From positions 25,358,001 to 25,422,000 of the forward strand of contig OX597819.1 of NCBI GenBank assembly GCA_951406725.2: DNA of 64,000 bases. Direction: 5' to 3'. Shown in pieces: positions 7,807 through 58,605 of the stretch. Origin of the DNA: Octopus vulgaris. Lineage: Eukaryota. The notes beneath the pieces are model-generated. The model did not search any database and had not been told where the DNA came from. It was given only the letters and a program-made list of their open reading frames with translations. The translations under genes were made by a program, and so were the position numbers. The number at the start of each line of letters is the position of its first letter. The stretch's first letter is position 1.

Positions 7807-8200
7807 GTGGAGGCGCAATGGCCCAGTGGTTAGGGCATCGGACTCGCGGTCATAGGATCGCGGTTTCGATTCCCAGACCGGGCGTTGTGAGTGTTTATTG
7901 AGCGAAAACACCTAAAAAGCTCCGCGAGGCTCCAGCAGGGGATGGTGGTGATCCCTGCTGTACTCTTTCACCACAACTTTCTCTCATTCTTACTTCCTGT
8001 TTCTGTTGTACCTGTATTTCAAGAGGCCGGCCTTGTCACTCTCTGCGTCACGCTGAATATCCCCGAGAACTACGTTAAGGGTGCACGTGTCTGTGGAGTG
8101 CTCAGCCACTTACACGTTAATTTCACGAGCAGGTTGTTCCGTTGATTCGGATCAACCGGAACTCTCATCGTCGTAACCGACGGAGTGCTTCCATCCATCC
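7807..8200 (+). mobile_element. tRNA-derived SINE, family B, full length with 12-bp TSD
   Basis: A box TGGCCCAGTGG, B-box-like GGTTTCGATTCC. TSD AATTATTCTGAT at 7794-7805 and 8201-8212. Confidence 0.95.
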
Positions 8201-11930: not shown

Positions 11931-12716
11931 AAGATTCAAGTTTACCAATTCTTCTTGCATCTCCCGACAAAAAGAAACACAAAAAAACTATTATCCACTT
12001 GCAAGATTCAAATATTCTCTACCACATTCTCACTCCAATGTCCCTATTTATTTGATGACTTAAATTAATCCCTGTCCATTTAATACCCCCACCGCCGATT
12101 TTGATATTTCATTGGGAAGGTCTCTGCATTCTTTTACCGCTTTTGATTTTGTCACGTTTCCTTTGCACAAAACATTAATCTCTCGTCTCCAATTTTGCGA
12201 GCTCTTCCATTTTGTCTATTAATTTTATCTATTTGTTTTTGTGACAAGTAGCAAATCTTTTGTTATGCTTTCTCTTAAAAGCCTCTCTCGTTAAAAAACA
12301 ACAACAAAGAACATTAAAAAAAAAACAAAAATGATTCTACTTTAGACTGCCAAATAACATTATTCTCACAAACCTCAGAAACACATTTTATGATTGTAAT
12401 AATGAAAGCCATCTCGCATCACCATCTCGCATGAAAGTGCTTCTCCAGAAGCCAACGAAAAAGCCCCTTCACGTTTGTTCGACTTTCTAGATATATCAAC
12501 CAAACCACCTCTCAACTCATTCTTGCTTTATCCTTTCTGTTTTTACAAAGGGTAAATTACATAGTGTAGTGGTGGGAAGCTTTGCCCGCAAAAAGGCGGG
12601 GTGGTCACGCAGGAAGGTCTCCGATTATAGACCCGGTTAAAAACTGATCCGGAGCTAATCAATCATGATGAAGATGATGGATGATGATAAGGATAACTAC
12701 TACTACTACTACTACT

Positions 12717-13090
12717 CGTGGAGGCGCAATGGCCCAGTGGTTAGGGCAGCGGACTCGCGGTTTCGATTCCCAGACCGGGCGTTGTGAGTGTTTATTGAGC
12801 GAAAACACCTAAAGCTCCATGAGGCTCCGGCAGGGGATGGTGGTGATCCCTGCTGTACTCTTTCACCACAACTTTCTCTCACTCTTACTTCCTGTTTCTG
12901 TTGTACATGTATTTCAAAGGGCCGGCCTTGTCACTCTCTGTGTCACGCTGAATATCCCCGAGAACTACGTTAAGGGTACACGTGTCTGTGGAGTGCTCAG
13001 CCACTTACACGTTAATTTCACGAGCAGGCTGTTCCGTTGATTCGGATCAACCGGAACCCTCATCGTCGTAACCGACGGAGTGCTTCCATC
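12717..13090 (+). mobile_element. SINE family B inside an (ACT)n tract
   Basis: Near-identical to 7807-8200, with a small deletion in the head. Confidence 0.95.
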
Positions 13091-28619: not shown

Positions 28620-29005
28620 CGTGGAGGCGCAATGTCCCAGTGGTTAGGGCAACGGACTCGCGGTCGTAAGATCGCGGTTCCGATTCCCAGACCGGGCGTT
28701 GTGAGTGTTTATTGAGCGAAAACACCTAAAGCTCCACGAGGCTCCTGCAGGAATGGTGATGATCCCTGCTGTACTCTTTCACCACAACTTTCTCTTACTC
28801 TTACTTCCTGTTTCTGTTGTACCTGTATTTCAAAGGGCCGGCCTTGTCACTCTCTGTGTCACGCTGAATATCCCCGAGAACTACGTTAAGGGTACATGTG
28901 TCTGTGGAGTGCTCAACCACTTACACGTTAATTTCACGAGCAGGCTGTTCCGTTGATCGGATCAACCGGAACCCTCGTCGTCGTAACCGACGGAGTGCTT
29001 CCACG
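28620..29005 (+). mobile_element. SINE family B with 9-bp TSD
   Basis: TSD ATACAGGGT at 28611-28619 and 29006-29014. Confidence 0.95.
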
Positions 29006-40845: not shown

Positions 40846-41077
40846 ATTTCTTTACTACCCACAAGGGGCTAAACACAGAGGAGACAAACAAGGACAGACA
40901 AACGGATTAAGTCGACTACATCGACTCCAGTGCGTAACTGGTACTTAAGTTATCGACCCCGGAAGGATGAAAGGCAAAGTTGACCTCGGCGGAATTTGAA
41001 CTCGGAACGTAACGGCAGACGAAATACGGCAACGCATTTCACCCGGCGTGCTAACGTTTCTGCCAGCTCGCCGCCTT
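40846..41077 (-). mobile_element. SINE family C, full length with Tx1-type tail
   Basis: Head AAGGCGGCGAGCTGGCAGAA and tail AGCCCCTTGTGGGTAGTAAAGAAA on the minus strand. Confidence 0.92.
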
Positions 41078-43806: not shown

Positions 43807-44196
43807 CTGTGGAGGCGCAATGGCCCAGTGGTTAGGGCAGCGGACTCGCGGTCATAGGATCGCGGTTTCGATTCCCAGACCGGGCGTTGTGAGTGTTTAT
43901 TGAGCGAAAACACCTAAAGCTCCACGAGGCTCCGGCAGGGATGGTGGTGATCCCTGCTGTACTCTTTCACCACAACTTTCTCTCACTCTTACTTCCTGTT
44001 TCTGTTGTACCTGTATTTCAAGGGACCGGCCTTGTCACTCTCTGTGTCACGATGAATATCCCCGAGAACTACGTTAAGGGTACACGTGTCTGTGGAGTGC
44101 TCAGCCACTTACACGTTAATTTCACGAGCAGGCTGTTCCGTTGATTCGGATCAACCGGAACCCTCGTCGTCGTAACCGACGGAGTGCTTCCAAAAA
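43807..44196 (+). mobile_element. SINE family B with 10-bp TSD
   Basis: TSD AATCTATACT at 43797-43806 and 44197-44206. Confidence 0.95.
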
Positions 44197-44630: not shown

Positions 44631-44879
44631 AATATACGTTTCTAAGCCTTACGTCGATAGAGGCAAACCTTTTGCATCAGACCACATACGTAATATCGTT
44701 CCACTTTTCAAGTTTATCCTTATCGAGATTTGCGATCTTTTTTTCTGAAACAATGAAGCATTTATACACAATGCTTCTATTGTTTCTTTGCCACATACGT
44801 TTTTCGCATATGTCACAAAATTTAATCGATATTTTTTGGGCTTTTTTTACTTGCTTTCCTTTTTACTGATCCATTGCTG

Positions 44880-45972
44880 CTATCTTTTCTCTTTCCACTA
44901 TGAATAATCTCTCCGTTTCACCCTCGTCTAATTGTTCTTCTCCTGAATCCTCCTCCTCTACTGATACAATGAATGTCCTCCTTCTGAAACGCCTCTTCGA
45001 GCTCCTTTTCAAGTTCCTTTTCGATCTTCTTGTCAACCACCATTTTATCTTCCTTCCTTCTGAATTCCTTCACAACCTCTTTCTCTACCGTTTCTTTCTT
45101 CTTTTTCTGCCTCTCTGGCGGAGGGCTTACTCTATCAATTCTCTTTCTCACTACCGTAAATTCTTCATCCGTTCTTGTCTCCTTTACCTCGACTTGTACC
45201 ACTTCGTCTGCACTCTCTTGCTTCTCAGTCTGTTCCATCTGTTATTCTCTCTGGGGGCACCTCGCCTTCATGTGACCTTTTTCTCCACATGTGAAGCCTA
45301 TGGGCGGTCTACCCTCCACCACCATTCGCAGCCTTACGTCCTCAGGCAGAACTATTTTCGCGATTCTGTTGAGGTCTTCTATACTCGCTTGAATGGCCCA
45401 ATAGTTCTTGTGGCCTTGAGAATCTTGGTCTCTTCCTCCATATTTAACATTATGACTGTTATCAGCCATGTTTATTTTATCTCTGGTGGCACGTTGCCAA
45501 TTCTAACCCGGTAGGTTGGCATTCCTCTGTTCTTATGGCTTCCCCCATCGCGAAACGCACCTCCACAGTGCCATACTTTCTTCCTCTGGTAATGAACGTG
45601 GTGAAGCTCTCGTTATGGCAGACCCTAAGTACATGCCAAGACTGAAGGGATATGGAGACGACGCTCACTGCTGGGAAAGGAAAGTTGACCCTGGGAAATT
45701 GCCAAAGTCTGTAAGTTATTATGAACTTATTCAAAAGTTTCAAATGGACATTTTTAGCACTAAAATCTTCCAAAGAGACATTAACCATTGTTTATTACAA
45801 GGATAAATGAAGTCGCCCGAATGTGAGGTCGAGTGGCTTTATTTCGGTTTTAATTTTTTCTTTTATTATTATTCCTCCTTTATACATCCGTTTTCTTGTC
45901 TTCACTTTTGTATTTTTGTCTGTCTTTGTATTGTCACTCTATGTTTATTCCCCTATGGGCATTAATGGAATC
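44880..45972. mobile_element. Tx1/L1-like ORF1 relic on the minus strand (~44880-45615) joined to a plus-strand segment ending in the LINE tail
   Basis: Minus strand: ITRGRKYGTVEVRF and VVEGRPPIGFTCGEKGHMKARCP (zinc knuckle). Plus-strand end: CTCTATGTTTATTCCCCTATGGGCATTAATGGAATC. Confidence 0.75.
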
Positions 45973-46019
45973 TACGTTGTTCTAAAGGTCAGTCAAAATT
46001 ATTAAGATGTATTTTTTGT

Positions 46020-46880
46020 TAATTGTTATGTCTTAAGACACTTGTTTTTGCTGCCTTATGGTAGTTTTGTTTGCGCTTTTCCCCCTTGTTTGAAGTGGGT
46101 AGCTCTGTTGTAAAATGAACTACGAAAACCTCAGTTCCTTGGAATTTACAACTTCTGAGGAAGATTTGCTGAGGGCAATTTCTGAAGTAGACAAAAAAGG
46201 AAAGAAGAGAATGAATTTTGCGGCTGTGGCTAAAAGCCACAACAAAGAAATTGAAGCAAAGGAACTTGGTAAATACAAGAATATGCTTCGTAGGGAGGTG
46301 TCCACCCCTAACAAGTAATACAGAAAACCAAAGAAAAAGTGATAATCTATAGAACTTACAGTATTAAAATCATGGAAGAGAATTAATTAGTACAAATCAA
46401 AGGCTTTAAAACCCATCTGGCAGGGAATTTCTGAGCTTGCCAGAGGAGAAAGTTTGGAACGATGGCGGTGCGGTTCCGAAATGAAGCTACTGCCAGGTTA
46501 CACTCGGCAACCCACTTAAAAATTGATGAAGTGGTACTTCTGCTCATATACTTTGGAAGGCGTTCTTCCATGGTAACGGTAGAAGACATAACCTCGAAAT
46601 AAATGTGGCCTGAATAGTAGCTGGTATACTACTGGGCATGGAAGAAAAAGATAGTGGTCCTCCAAGTCACCTGCACTGCACATAAAAATTGGCAAGGGCA
46701 GAGCCTGGATATGGTAATCCAGGAAGCCCTGGAAAATGTGGTTGAGACCATTACATTTTTCATGTTTTTCATTTTATTTTATTCCTCCTTTTTAAATCCA
46801 TTTTTTGTCCCTATTTTTTGTTTTTGTTCGTCTTTGTATTGTCCCTCTGTGTTTAGCTCCCTGTGGGCAATAAAGAAATC
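46020..46880 (+). mobile_element. Tx1/L1-like ORF1-only element (pseudogenised) with LINE tail
   Basis: ORF1 from 46115 (..NFAAVAK..RKFGTMAVRF..VVLLLIYFGRR..NWQGQSLDMVIQ), homologous to 54140-54900. It runs into a T-rich UTR and CCCTGTGGGCAATAAAGAAATC. Confidence 0.78.
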
Positions 46881-51994: not shown

Positions 51995-52042
51995 GATAAT
52001 AATAGTGGTTTCAAATTTTGCCACAAGGGTAGCAATTAATAA

Positions 52043-52540
52043 ATGAAAGGCAAAGTCGAGCGAAATTTGAACTCAGACCGTAGCGACGGGCGAAATACCT
52101 ATTTCTTTACTACACATAAGGGGCTAAACACAGAGGGGACAAACAAGGACAGACAAACGGATTAAGTCGATTATATCGACCCCAGTGCGTAACTGGTACT
52201 TATTTAATCGACCCCGAATGGAAAAAAGGCAAAGTCGACCTCGGCGGAAATTTGAACTCAGGACGTAGCACCAGACGAAATACCTATTTCTATTTCTTTA
52301 TTACCCACAAGGGGCTAAACATAGAGGGGACAAACAAGGACAGACATAGGTATTAAGTCGATTACATGGAACCCAGTGCGTAACTGGTACTTAATTTATC
52401 GACCCCGAAAGGATGAAAGGCAAAGTCGACCTCGGCGGAATTTGAACTCACAACGTAACGGCAGCCGAAATACCGCTAAGCATTTCGCCCGACGTGCTAA
52501 CGATTTTGCCAGCTCGCCACCTTTGCCAGCTCGCCGCCTT
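52043..52540 (-). mobile_element. Array of three SINE family C units with identical junctions
   Basis: Junctions CGAAATACC|TATTTC at 52099/52100 and 52284/52285. Confidence 0.92.
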
Positions 52541-55066
52541 GAAGGAAACCGTTTACCCGAACTATCGAATGAATGCTGTGATACAAAACGATAAACCACG
52601 TGAGGAAGCCAAGGCCCAGGCCGAACCGCGCAAGCACAGTGACCAGGTATCGATGGTCAATGCTATCAAAAGCTTTAGACTGGTCCAAATGTACCAATGC
52701 CCCACTTTTGCCAGATTTATTACCAGCCCTCTCTATGGTATAGCGAATAAGGTAGAGATTATCCTGAATGGTTCTGCCTGGGATGGCACATGTCTGTGCC
52801 TCCCCGACTATACCATTCGTGACACGCGCCAACCATTTTGCTAAGACCTTGGCCAAAACCTTCACCTCTGCATTTAAACAGACTGATGCGCCTGAAGTTA
52901 TCTAAAACGTCCCCCTTGTCCGGGTCCTTTCTGACCAACGTCCCTACACCCCGGCGCACAGATCTGGAGATAAATCCATTCTGTTGCTAGTTCCCGTACA
53001 CGTCAGCCATTAGGTGCCCGAATAAGTCTGGCATACATTTATACAGCTCGTAGGGAAGACCATCAATTCCCGGCGACTTTCCCGCTTTACAGTCGGCCAT
53101 AGCCTCCATCACCCATCACCTCCACAGGCGTGATCGGCCCTTCTCAAGACTCCGCACCCGACCCTGAAAGGCACGTTAGCCCGGCAAGAAAGTCCTCGAG
53201 GAATCTTCTACCGTCAGGACCGCCATCACTCCCGAACAGCTGGGCGTAGTACTCCCGAAAGGCCTCACACATTTCCTCGGGTTCGTTTACCAAGACGCAA
53301 TTTTGATTCGTCAAAGACCGAATAGTGGAACTATTTCCTTACCGAGCTTCCACCACTCGGGCCCATCCAGCGGCCTTGATTCCTTCACTTCCCATCGCAT
53401 GTAACTTAGCTCTGGCAGCACTTCCCATGTGTTGGGCTTCAAGATACTGGTTCAATTCCAGTCTCTTCACCTTCACTTGGTCCGCATTACCAGTCCTCTA
53501 GGCTCCTTCTAGTTCCATAACTAGACCATCTCTTAATCTACGTCCCTTCTTAGCTGAACTTATGCTAAACCTAACAGACTCATATTTTAGGGCTCTTTTT
53601 AGGGCGTACCACCATTTGTTATTAATGATTGTACCTGTCAATGCCCTCTGTATTAATATCTCGATCCTATTTCTGTACTCCTCAATCGCCAAAAGGGACG
53701 CATTGAGTTTCTAGTAGCCAGATCCCTGTCTATGCAACTTATCTACTGTCAGCTTAGAGGTAACCATCTTTTGATCACTGTAGCCAACTAGATAAAACTG
53801 TGGACACTTAGCTATGGATTTAACTATCTTTCTAATTAAAACCCTATCTAGATATGTTCTGGAAGACCCGTCACTGTTTGACCAGGTCCACTGTGGAGTG
53901 TTCGGGATTTCCAACCTATATGGATCTGCTAGCTGAAAGTGACTTTGCAGATTCCGTTAGCCAGGGTTACATTTTCTATTCATGTTCGAGCCAGTACAAT
54001 CAGTGTGTGCGTCACAGATTGTGTTAAATCTCCTATCAGTACTAGCAAATGCGAAGTGGCCTGGAACTTGCCCAGTGTTTATTTATATGGCTCAGCTGGC
54101 CACACTAGAAACATCAGGGCTTACACCCCTCGACGAATACGTTAAGGAATTCCGCCCCAATTTCTATTTTCTTCGGCAACTGTTCTAAAATTGACTTTCT
54201 GTATTAGGAGGTGAACCGTTTGACCGGTCCGATAAGTCTTTTCTTTGACGGTAGCCTGAAGGAGTGTTATATTATCTTCCTTTTTAGCCAGGACTGCCGC
54301 CATCAACCACACAGGGTCGACTTGAGGTGGGATCCTTAGAACACGTATCTTTGACGTCGTCAATCCCATGTATATTGGAATTAAAACCACGTCCTCCGTT
54401 TCTAAAGATTTAACTGGGTGTATTTGTGCAGTTTCTATATCTTTTAGTCGTATTTCGATAGTACCAAACTTCTTCCCTCTGGCTAGATATGTGATATCCT
54501 TCCTGCCAGATGGGTTTCAAGCACTTCTCAATTTTCTCTTCGTTCGATTAATTTTTTCCCTTTTAGACAGTAAGATTTAAAAATAATTGTTTTTCTTTTT
54601 TCTAACATTAATAGTTTTTCCGGTGGTTGAACTTTCATAACACCGTCTTCAATTGTTATTATATCTTTGTACTTCATCAGGTCATTTTTGTTTGTCGACA
54701 GCTGGCGGGTTCCACCTTCAGCCGACGCAAGTATTATTTTTTGTTTATTTTCTTCTGTTTGAAGGCTTTCCACGTCAATATTCCTATTTGGGGAAATTCA
54801 ATTTCAGAAGAATCCGAAATATCGCCAAATATCAAACATTAAGTCTCTTTTGCATCCCTATCGGTTGACTTCTCTTCGCCAGACGAAGTTACACTTTTCG
54901 GCATCTTGCCAGCAATTAATGTTTTCCCCGCAGGGGAAAACACGATAGTTTTCGAACGAAAACTATCAAACAAGTAATTATAACAGGAAATAACACAAAA
55001 AACGGTCAATAGAAACTTGCACTTACTTGCACTCCAATAATAATTACCAATAAATCCAAACTCACA
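52541..55066 (-). mobile_element. Tx1/L1-clade LINE, pseudogenised: 5' UTR, ORF1, partial APE endonuclease and N-terminal half of RT
   Basis: ORF1 YLARGKKFGTIEIR..VLIPIYMG..FVEGCKP; APE WTWSNSDGSSRTYLDRVL..SDQKMV; RT GKSPGIDGLPYELY, DNFRRISL, KVLAKVLA..QTCAIPGRTIQDN..LDQSKAFDSIDH. Internal deletion between ORF1 and APE; RT is cut off by the SINE. Confidence 0.93.
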
Positions 55067-55078
55067 CAGACGAAATCT

Positions 55079-55310
55079 TATTTCTTTACTACCCACGAGG
55101 AGCTAAACACAGAGAGGACAAACAAGGACAGACAAACGGATCAAGTCGATTATATCGACTCCAGTGCGTAACTGGTACTTAATTTATTGACCCCGAAAGG
55201 ATGAAAGGCAAAGTCGACCTCGGCAGAATTTGAACTCAGAACGTAACGGCAGACGAAATATTGCTAAGCATTTCACCCGGCATGCTAACGATTCTGCCAG
55301 CTCACCACTT
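55079..55310 (-). mobile_element. SINE family C, full length
   Basis: Near-identical to 40846-41077, followed by (AAT)n at 55311-55517. Confidence 0.92.
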
Positions 55311-55337
55311 TAAATAATAATAATAATAATAATATTC

Positions 55338-55730: not shown

Positions 55731-55803
55731 TCGGTGTACGGAAAACACTCGGCGAGAAACGGAAGAAAATTTAAAGAAAGAAGGAAATAATAATAATAAT
55801 AAT

Positions 55804-56352
55804 GATGCAGTACCAGGCAGTGGCTCTCATGGCTTCTGATCTTAACTGATTGGAAGTGTTATCATGTACATTGTTTTGTCTTGGTATAAAAGATGGGCTA
55901 CAGCAAATATTCTGCTCAATACCACAGATTTGCTTGTCAGTTGTTTGACCTTAACCAGTTGAGCATGTCCCTTAGTGGCTGACGATATGTGCATCTCTGA
56001 TCACGAGCAGAAGTAGGTGGGGAGCATCATAGCCATGTGTTGAGAAGGATTCTTTGGGGTTTGAATAATTCACCTCTGGAAACATGGTTGTTTCGTTCAA
56101 CGTCCTTAAACAACCCTTATTCAGGGACCTTTTGAGCGGGATGGGTTACTCGATCTGAAGAAAATTCTAACTGGGCTCCACCTGCAAGGTCATGTGCTGT
56201 TTATCTTGATATGAGATCACCATGTCGCGCACATATGGTTGTGATGCATGTGCCTGGTGTACCCTTATCAGACGGGTAGTCATGATGGGTATATTGGGCT
56301 TCGTATATTTTATCCCAGTGTCACTTTGATGACATGAACTGCTCTCTCACTC
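55804..56352. mobile_element. ~550-bp non-coding interspersed repeat (family E) inside (AAT)n
   Basis: Reverse complement of 57276-57776 and 58051-58605; (AAT)n on both sides. Confidence 0.9.
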
Positions 56353-56489
56353 AATAATAATAATAATAATAATAGAAGAAGAGGGAGAGGAATGAAGACT
56401 ATAGAAATAGTGGCGGAAGTTACAAAGACAAAAGAAAGAAGAAAAGAAAAACCACATGAGAAATTGGAATTAAGACAAAAATACGATAA

Positions 56490-57235: not shown

Positions 57236-57275
<40 letters not shown>

Positions 57276-57776
57276 GAGTGAGAGAGCAGTTCATGCCATC
57301 AAAGTGACACTGGGGTAAAATATACGAAGCCCAATATACCCATCATGACTACCCGTCTGATAAGGGTACACCAGGAACATGCATCACAACCATATGTGCG
57401 CGACATGGTGATCTCATATCAAGATAAACAGCACATGACCTTGCAGGTGAGGCCCAGTTAGAATTTTCTTCAGGTTGAGTAGCCCATCCCGCTCAAACGG
57501 TCCCTGAATAAGGATTGTTTAAGGATGTTGAAAGAACCACCCATGTTTCCAGAGGTGAATTATTCAAACCCCAAAGAATCCCTCTTAACACATGGCTATG
57601 ATGCTCCCCCACTACTTCTGCTCGTGATCAGAGATGCACATATCGTCAGCCACTAAGGGACATGCTCAACTGGTTAAGGTCAAACAACTGACAAGCAAAT
57701 CTGTGGTATTGAGCAGAATATTTGCTGTAGCCCATCTTTTATACCAAGACAAAACAATGTACATGATAACACTTCC
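57276..57776. mobile_element. Family E copy (shortened at one end) inside (ATT)n
   Basis: Starts GAGTGAGAGAGCAG; colinear with 58051-58550. Confidence 0.9.
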
Positions 57777-57818
<42 letters not shown>

Positions 57819-58010: not shown

Positions 58011-58050
58011 TATTATTATTATTATTATTATGATTATTATTATCATTATT

Positions 58051-58605
58051 GAGTGAGAGGGAAGTGCATGCCATCAAAATGACACTGGGGTAAAATATAC
58101 GAAGCCTAGGATACCCATCATGACTACCCGTCTGATAAGGGTACACTAGGTACATGCATCACAACCATATGTGTGCGACATGGTGATCTCATATCAAGAT
58201 AAACAGCACATGACCTTGCAGGTGAGGCCCAGTTAGAATTTTGTTCTGGTCGAGTAACCCATCCCGCTCAAAAGGTCCCTGAATAAGGGTTGTTTAAGGA
58301 TGTTGAACGAAAGACCCCTGTTTCCAAAGCTGAATTATTCAAACCCCAAAGAATCCCTCTTAACACATGGCTATGATGCTCCCCCACTACTTCTGCTCGT
58401 GATCAGAGATGCACATATCGTCAGCCACTAAGGGACATGCTCAACTGGTTAAGGTCAAACAACTGACAAGCAAATCTGTAGTATTGAGTAGAATATTTGT
58501 TGTATCCCATCTTTTATACCAAGACAAAACAATGTACATGATAACACCTCCAATCAGTTAAGATCAGAAGCCATGAGAGCCACTGCCTGGTACTGCATCA
58601 GGGCG
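58051..58605. mobile_element. Family E copy inside (ATT)n
   Basis: Direct repeat of 57276-57776; (ATT/ATC)n tracts at 57777-58050 and 58606-58718. Confidence 0.9.

Follow-up and report, generated by a model that had tools for sequence, protein, structure and literature searches.

The locus raises the question of why three SINE-C tails stop at the same short motif, around a broken LINE, in the window (the whole stretch of 64,000 nucleotides of Octopus vulgaris DNA analysed here, contig OX597819.1, positions 25,358,001 to 25,422,000 of the forward strand). Very probably, an APE-type LINE, likely Tx1, inserts almost only at a motif of 12-13 bp, located between the A box and the B box of a head shared by several SINE families, and SINE-C, which shares the LINE tail, inserts there too (about 60% of the sampled tails). 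The SINE passenger is likely to supply the landing sites of its carrier LINE, and SINE-C to borrow the enzymes of the LINE. The nested repeats of the locus are the following.

55079-55312, minus strand: S1, full-length SINE-C of 234 nt with head, body and LINE-like tail, beginning directly after an (ATT)n tract.
About 55299-55289 and about 55235-55226, minus strand: A-box-like and B-box-like stretches of S1, respectively, recognised by eye from the box consensus.
55067-55078, minus strand: 5' copy of the target motif, decayed, abutting the first LINE base.
54073-55066, minus strand: 5' UTR and broken ORF1 remnant of LINE subfamily A; the ORF1 is about 53% identical to that of subfamily B.
52542-54075, minus strand: broken ORF2 remnant of LINE subfamily A, matching residues 144-637 of the APE-RT protein (1134 aa) encoded by a natural intact copy.
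52285-52540, minus strand: S2, full-length SINE-C whose start is doubled and whose tail has a short duplication; it is joined to the RT region of the LINE.
52100-52284, minus strand: S3, headless SINE-C unit with the target motif (52284-52272) first.
52007-52099, minus strand: S4, terminal headless unit with a decayed motif first, an internal deletion, a sister-family SINE tail at its end and ATT repeats beyond it.

The three tail/motif junctions reported in the preliminary description are present (52089-52105, 52272-52290 and 55067-55084). The motif is internal to the SINE, as was stated there, and occupies positions 52-63 (numbered on the 55312-55067 copy) between what we take, from their consensus, to be the A and B boxes. 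The SINE-C copy at 40846 ends in (TA)n, again as described. With at most one mismatch, the motif occurs six times in 128 kb (both strands of the window). Genome-wide, there are 62,185 exact SINE-C tails, 18,932 of which (30.4%) continue with the exact AGGTATTTCG, and the reversed control of this junction pattern has 0 matches. The pattern is therefore not due to chance.

The segment 52285-55066 had been read as one LINE+SINE unit within a target site duplication (TSD). Motif copies do bracket the piece, but it consists of a broken LINE and a full SINE joined separately. Compared with full-length natural copies, the LINE has an internal deletion of about 0.8 kb ahead of the ORF2 remnant and has lost its last ~1.57 kb, tail included. 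Since these 3' 1.6 kb are missing, the bracketed 2.8-kb piece is not a single insertion. The junction between the LINE and S2 has a 3-nt microhomology; that it defines a family of its own was rejected, as only the window copy aligns past the junction among the 40 best RT matches. S4 is likely the remainder of the original host SINE. Its tail is of a sister-family type also present at other array ends, so the original host was probably not a SINE-C. The two motif copies are plausibly the original duplication of the LINE, with S2 as a later addition and the end of the LINE lost at that step or afterwards. The locus would then have grown from a sister-family SINE that received a LINE-A and subsequently SINE-C insertions to either side of it, the 3' 1.57 kb of the LINE being lost.

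The LINE keeps to the same site across the genome. At least two subfamilies are distinguished, A (the window type, about 4.9 kb, copies 83-87% alike) and B (about 5.3 kb, copies about 98% alike). Among 30 subfamily A loci fetched, all 25 recognisable 5' ends are preceded by the motif, 19 after a SINE tail and six after a head. The 5' ends of subfamily B follow a SINE head ending in the motif in 34 of 34 cases (39 RT-picked loci, two of which are one segmental duplicate), which gives 59 of 59 overall. At the opposite end, the 45 tails found in the 60 fetched loci all run into the motif, one pair being a segmental duplicate; loci without a scored tail are truncated in the fetched range. Genome-wide, the 3' flanks peak at the motif: the first six letters of the site (exact SGTATT) come next in 70 of the 77 exact LINE tails. 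The first 30 of these loci comprise 28 on-site copies (in four of which the first letters bear point changes), a short copy that lies off site and has a 16-bp duplication of its own, and one other element. The flanks of the LINE exceed the 20% of one type that Kojima takes as target preference, and its TSD is short. The RT-selected sample is biased toward intact young copies. LINEs are usually heavily 5' truncated; the tail-selected copies (L171-L200) are rarely short, and 19 of the first 20 span the whole 1.5 kb upstream.

The flanks of the B copies tell how these copies arose. The 12-13-bp motif lies on both sides of 31 full-length B copies. The identity among 32 full-length B loci is 99.1% for the LINE ends, against 90.5% for the upstream heads and 88.0% for the downstream SINE halves (non-CpG positions, pooled; six truncated loci skipped). 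LINE ends about 99% alike between SINE halves only 88-90% alike mean that the B copies inserted independently. One motif mismatch, shared by both copies, is found in 372 positions at B loci (31 loci, one deletion-bearing locus left out), against 45 in 444 positions of solitary heads; B therefore occupies near-perfect sites in old SINEs. One head variant, present in 18 of 100 other heads, hosts 32 of 33 B copies, and the five subfamily A copies scored are all in other variants. The tails of A join at G and those of B at C. A SINE-C lies directly upstream of 19 of the 25 A copies, whereas no such SINE unit is found directly in front of B copies. The SINE units upstream of A are as alike (0.922, 18 of the 19 compared) as the background (0.929), which, with the bare front of B, would fit an A older and a B younger than the SINE-C burst. 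The proposal that the LINE uses the SINE as a landing pad thus holds for site-specific insertion in a SINE head, but the pad is the shared head of several families and not of SINE-C only. At one locus (L084, C3:153111000-153124700), a full LINE-B is tandemly duplicated together with its flanks, with a spacing of about 6.45 kb.

An unbroken 1134-codon ORF2 is carried by three subfamily B copies among the 60 loci. In the natural intact copy L107, it contains the APE, RT and zinc finger domains (PF03372, PF00078 and PF13966). The CX2CX4HX4C (CCHC) knuckle of ORF1 is present in 32 copies, and part of ORF1 resembles zf-CCHC clusters (0.92) and ZCCHC3-type RNA-binding clusters (0.89), which is a lead only. 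APE, RT and a C-terminal zinc finger in ORF2, with a separate ORF1 bearing a CCHC knuckle, form the Tx1 architecture, which is common to other L1-group elements and is necessary, not sufficient, for the assignment. The best solved relative is human L1 ORF2 (219 bits), with R2 lower (74). Among the named protein relatives, the closest comes from Argonauta hians (57% over 663 aa), and a protein with the automatic name 'Transposon TX1 uncharacterized 149 kDa protein' has 34% identity over 420 aa. The close protein relatives are mostly nameless and of little help in placing the clade. Judged by its architecture, its behaviour and this one automatically named relative, the LINE likely belongs to the Tx1 clade. 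In contigs from four runs, which bear the labels of four organisms, 29 of 30 bins of a B copy are covered, a coverage that permits no inference on expression; these contigs have loose ends with the same junction letters.

SINE-C is a 234-nt, non-coding and dispersed element of high copy number with TSDs, as expected of a SINE. Its last ~45 bases resemble the LINE tail (SINE positions 191-246 are 77-81% identical to the LINE end plus motif), and it thus bears the tail of a partner LINE, a tail that other elements carry too. Exact LINE tails number only 77, against the 62,185 of the SINE. A sample of the first 100 SINE-C tails, 97 of them distinct, was taken from the first 3.5 Mb of one contig: 59 of the 97 are on site (53 scored automatically and six by eye) and 38 off site. 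The off-site tails still continue with AGG in 22 of 38 cases, and TSD-like repeats of 10-21 nt (at most two mismatches) are found in 18 of the 28 copies with a recognised head, no head having been found in 10 more. The off-site copies look like looser products of the same machinery. ARAGORN gave no tRNA identity for the SINE head and Rfam no credible match. The predicted fold of the head is no better than that of shuffled sequences (z 0.03), and the same is true of the tails. At head positions about 36-62 (window 55277-55251, minus strand), the motif forms the 3' arm of an imperfect predicted hairpin, a lead only given the z of 0.03 for the head. Octopus SINE families named OK, OR1 and OR2 were reportedly described by Ohshima and Okada in 1994. 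OR2 is cited in PMC4758252.

The same head contains a second fixed site, at position 18 within the A-box-like region, where a variant of the SINE tail is joined (1,828 exact junctions). The 12 junctions fetched all continue into the head (examples are L013, L014, L017, L042, L107 and L240-L251). A LINE-like tail at head position 18 (L035) hints at a second site-specific family.

The shared tail extends to further elements. Two old ORF1-like remnants lie back to back in the window, at 44870-45980 (minus strand) and about 46000-46880 (plus strand). They are 25-39% identical piecewise to the LINE ORF1, have no ORF2 match and have 40 relatives among the genome-wide matches listed. The plus-strand remnant ends in the shared tail, outside any SINE head; no tail was found within the searched range in the relatives of the 46560-46880 element, only the window copy having one. 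The locus L191 (C4:8304349) is a different element that shares the terminal 29 bases and has no ORF match within 1.5 kb; its tail is followed by unrelated sequence that repeats about 75 bp upstream. Since the element at 46879 and L191 both bear the tail, the LINE is a likely but not the only candidate for the mobilising partner of SINE-C.

SINE units also follow each other in arrays with fixed junctions, which the preliminary description attributed to insertion. This is borne out by two-unit arrays, whose neighbours are 0.919 alike (n 25) against 0.921 for unrelated pairs, with none of the 25 pairs at 0.985 or above. On the other hand, arrays of at least four units, picked for length, have a median neighbour identity of 0.993, with 14 of 25 at 0.985 or above; they are largely near-identical tandem copies, an outcome that had been named as evidence against insertion. 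Tandem duplication is consequently ruled out as the source of the two-unit arrays and accepted for the long ones. Another family provides the end unit of 20 of 62 arrays. Two arrays of 11 and seven units (L151, C1:4675600-4678700, and L152) have inner units 99-100% identical and a sister-family end unit, and are incipient SINE-derived satellites.

The splitting of the Pol III promoter, suggested for targeted copies, applies to the LINE inserts, which separate the A and B boxes; SINE-in-SINE junctions, however, nearly always keep one whole head. Double-headed junctions number 29, against the 18,932 exact junctions (patterns of 25 and 33 fixed letters). Eight of these 29 exact cases were fetched and all consist of a host head, the motif, a full SINE-C and a downstream unit that starts with the motif. 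These uncollapsed cases are direct footprints of SINE-in-SINE insertion. The idea that the head of an array is the head of its host is unsupported, as head variants track the first unit. The C head variant is linked to one body variant in 17 of 20 solitary SINEs. In arrays with this head variant, the linked body is found in the first unit in 10 of 15 cases (p 0.25) and in the last in three of 15. Nine of these 15 arrays end in D or E tails, yet none of 20 solitary D/E SINEs has the variant; likewise, a head variant absent from 16 solitary D-family heads is present in six of 18 arrays ending in D. As heads track the first unit, the head of the host is probably replaced by, or recombined with, that of the incoming copy, so that both boxes stay whole. 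Of 13 arrays with C at the junction position of the head, 11 have G as the junction letter, which is therefore likely to come from the RNA.

Across loci, first and last units show a weak correlation (centred Mantel r 0.16, p 0.001 for C-to-C arrays; r 0.12, p 0.09 for C-to-D). Divergence is greater in the last unit than in the first in only 21 of 37 C-to-C arrays (p 0.08), and in 17 of 18 C-to-D arrays, where the comparison is confounded by family. The Mantel signal and the weak age difference suggest that some arrays may have moved as read-through multimers, as a partial contribution.

Several other readings of these junctions were weighed. The LINE could travel inside a SINE, as a unit of head, LINE and SINE body, with the fixed junctions inherited from a master. 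The concentration of 32 of 33 B copies in a head variant with a share of only 18 in 100 among other heads would suit such a master, as would the SINE-C directly upstream of 19 of 25 A copies. The flanking SINE halves are nevertheless about ten times more diverged than the LINE ends, the downstream units belong to several families (27 C, two D and three other; n=32) and the similarity among the SINE units upstream of A does not exceed the background (0.922 and 0.929). A composite master is ruled out largely by the divergent flanks and by this background-level similarity, and the chance that it is correct is very slight. A site-specific LINE could also coexist with SINE arrays that mostly descend, as read-through multimer RNAs and by tandem duplication, from a few founder arrays. 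Heads that track the first and not the last unit, the rarity of uncollapsed head-motif-full-SINE junctions (29 exact), the weak Mantel signal and the near-identity of long arrays all agree with it, and for the SINE arrays of bivalves, PMC11481361 proposes unequal recombination between TSDs. Yet the terminal units vary in family and variant, the Mantel r is low, uncollapsed insertions exist and the SINE-C sequences at the motif before 19 of 25 LINE-A copies are unrelated; multimers as the main source of the arrays are therefore improbable.

Specificity could instead reside mainly in RNA-DNA pairing of the transcript 3' end, aided by 5' homology, with a loosely specific endonuclease. The joining of A tails at G and B tails at C matches the head variants that each occupies, off-site SINE insertions often start with GGTAT, GTAT or TATAT, and the tail variant at the second head site joins it with different junction letters (1,828 exact junctions). 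However, the ~7 nt that would pair seem too short by themselves to place 28 of 29 LINE insertions on site in 2.8 Gb, the fidelity extends over all 12 positions of the target, and specificity set by the endonuclease is the published norm for such elements, according to the consulted sections of PMC4494074. This reading is unlikely, if slightly less so than the founder arrays; pairing more plausibly contributes to the specificity of the endonuclease than replaces it.

With insertion of the LINE and of SINE-C at a fixed site in the shared head as the preferred reading, the steps of the process may be proposed. Target-primed reverse transcription is established for such elements (PMC3747384, as far as the consulted text goes). 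The endonuclease would nick the bottom strand at head position 51/52, from where reverse transcription would be primed, and the junctions place the probable top-strand break after head position 63. The last bases of the RNA (G or C, then GTATTT, presumably read through from the target of the parent copy) would pair with the primer. Each insertion would duplicate the motif and so regenerate the site. A LINE insert parts the A and B boxes of its host by about 5 kb. A SINE insert, on the other hand, brings an identical head; the two heads likely collapse to one during or after integration, and a complete promoter would remain. SINE-C also lands at looser look-alike sites, by which new landing pads would be seeded, and the long uniform arrays likely grew further by tandem duplication. 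A bolder extension is possible but doubtful: LINE and SINE may form a closed loop in which the SINE regenerates the only target of the LINE and keeps its promoter by head exchange, while LINE subfamilies track head variants through RNA ends that are inherited from the parent and help to choose the next site. If this holds, the use of a minority variant by 32 of 33 B copies and the second site in the A box would be snapshots of a heritable, partly RNA-guided retargeting.

Parts of this arrangement have precedents. The crocodilian Tx1-Mar LINEs and SINEU-3 have one target inside another repeat, common to LINE and SINE (Kojima 2015, PMC4494074, in the sections consulted). As in the octopus, LINE and SINE share the target, tandem SINE insertions sandwich the TSD and some SINE families are less specific. 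In the octopus, however, the target lies in the SINE's own head and in those of its sister families, the site would be regenerated at each insertion and colliding heads likely collapse to one. Tx1L of Xenopus (in Tx1D), Tx1-8_Crp, Tx1-4_AMi and Tx1-9_AMi are, according to the same sections, inserted at fixed places in transposons. They are likewise APE-type LINEs in other mobile elements, but their targets are piggyBac, LTR or Harbinger elements and none is a LINE-dependent SINE. Target sequence carried on the R2 transcript aids integration. The consulted sections of PMC4494074 also discuss R2-type homology at the 5' junction and give U2 snRNA as the target of Keno and microsatellites as those of Kibi and Koshi. 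These elements resemble the octopus LINE in sequence-specific insertion into a multicopy target and, if the proposed pairing holds, in target sequence on the transcript that aids integration; their targets are host genes or simple repeats, whereas the octopus target is mobile and multiplies. Head-to-tail SINE arrays, some family-mixed and the long ones more uniform, occur in bivalves (PMC11481361), and squamates have SINE-derived satellites (PMC10702118); in the consulted passages of both papers, the arrays are explained by recombination or chance re-insertion, and no site-specific LINE is named. A 2026 octopus repeat annotation (PMC13282606) lists 13 recently active L1-Tx1 families, and its main text has neither 'target' nor 'nested'; PMC8869645 has neither SINE nor Tx1 as a whole word. 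Tx1 elements that target other transposons and a tandem SINE that shares its target with a LINE are thus known, and a LINE that targets the head of its partner SINE was not found in the literature searched, which did not include Repbase Reports, a possible home of octopus Tx1 families.

The usual one-way view of the SINE as a pure parasite is reversed here, as the SINE likely gives the LINE tens of thousands of dispersed, harmless sites. The LINE in turn likely knocks out SINE promoters. With intact copies that are 99% alike, a 12-bp target and two subfamilies that prefer different variants, the gain or change of specificity of an APE endonuclease is directly testable. Repeat annotation will break up head-collapsed arrays into many spurious SINE families.

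The window has two further groups of repeats. A segment of 526-572 bp is present three times (55803-56374, 57254-57779 and 58029-58600), twice inverted, its copies being 94-96% alike. Another dispersed SINE-like family, with a different tRNA-like head, is found at 7810-8109, 12705-13004, 28621-28920 and 43809-44108.
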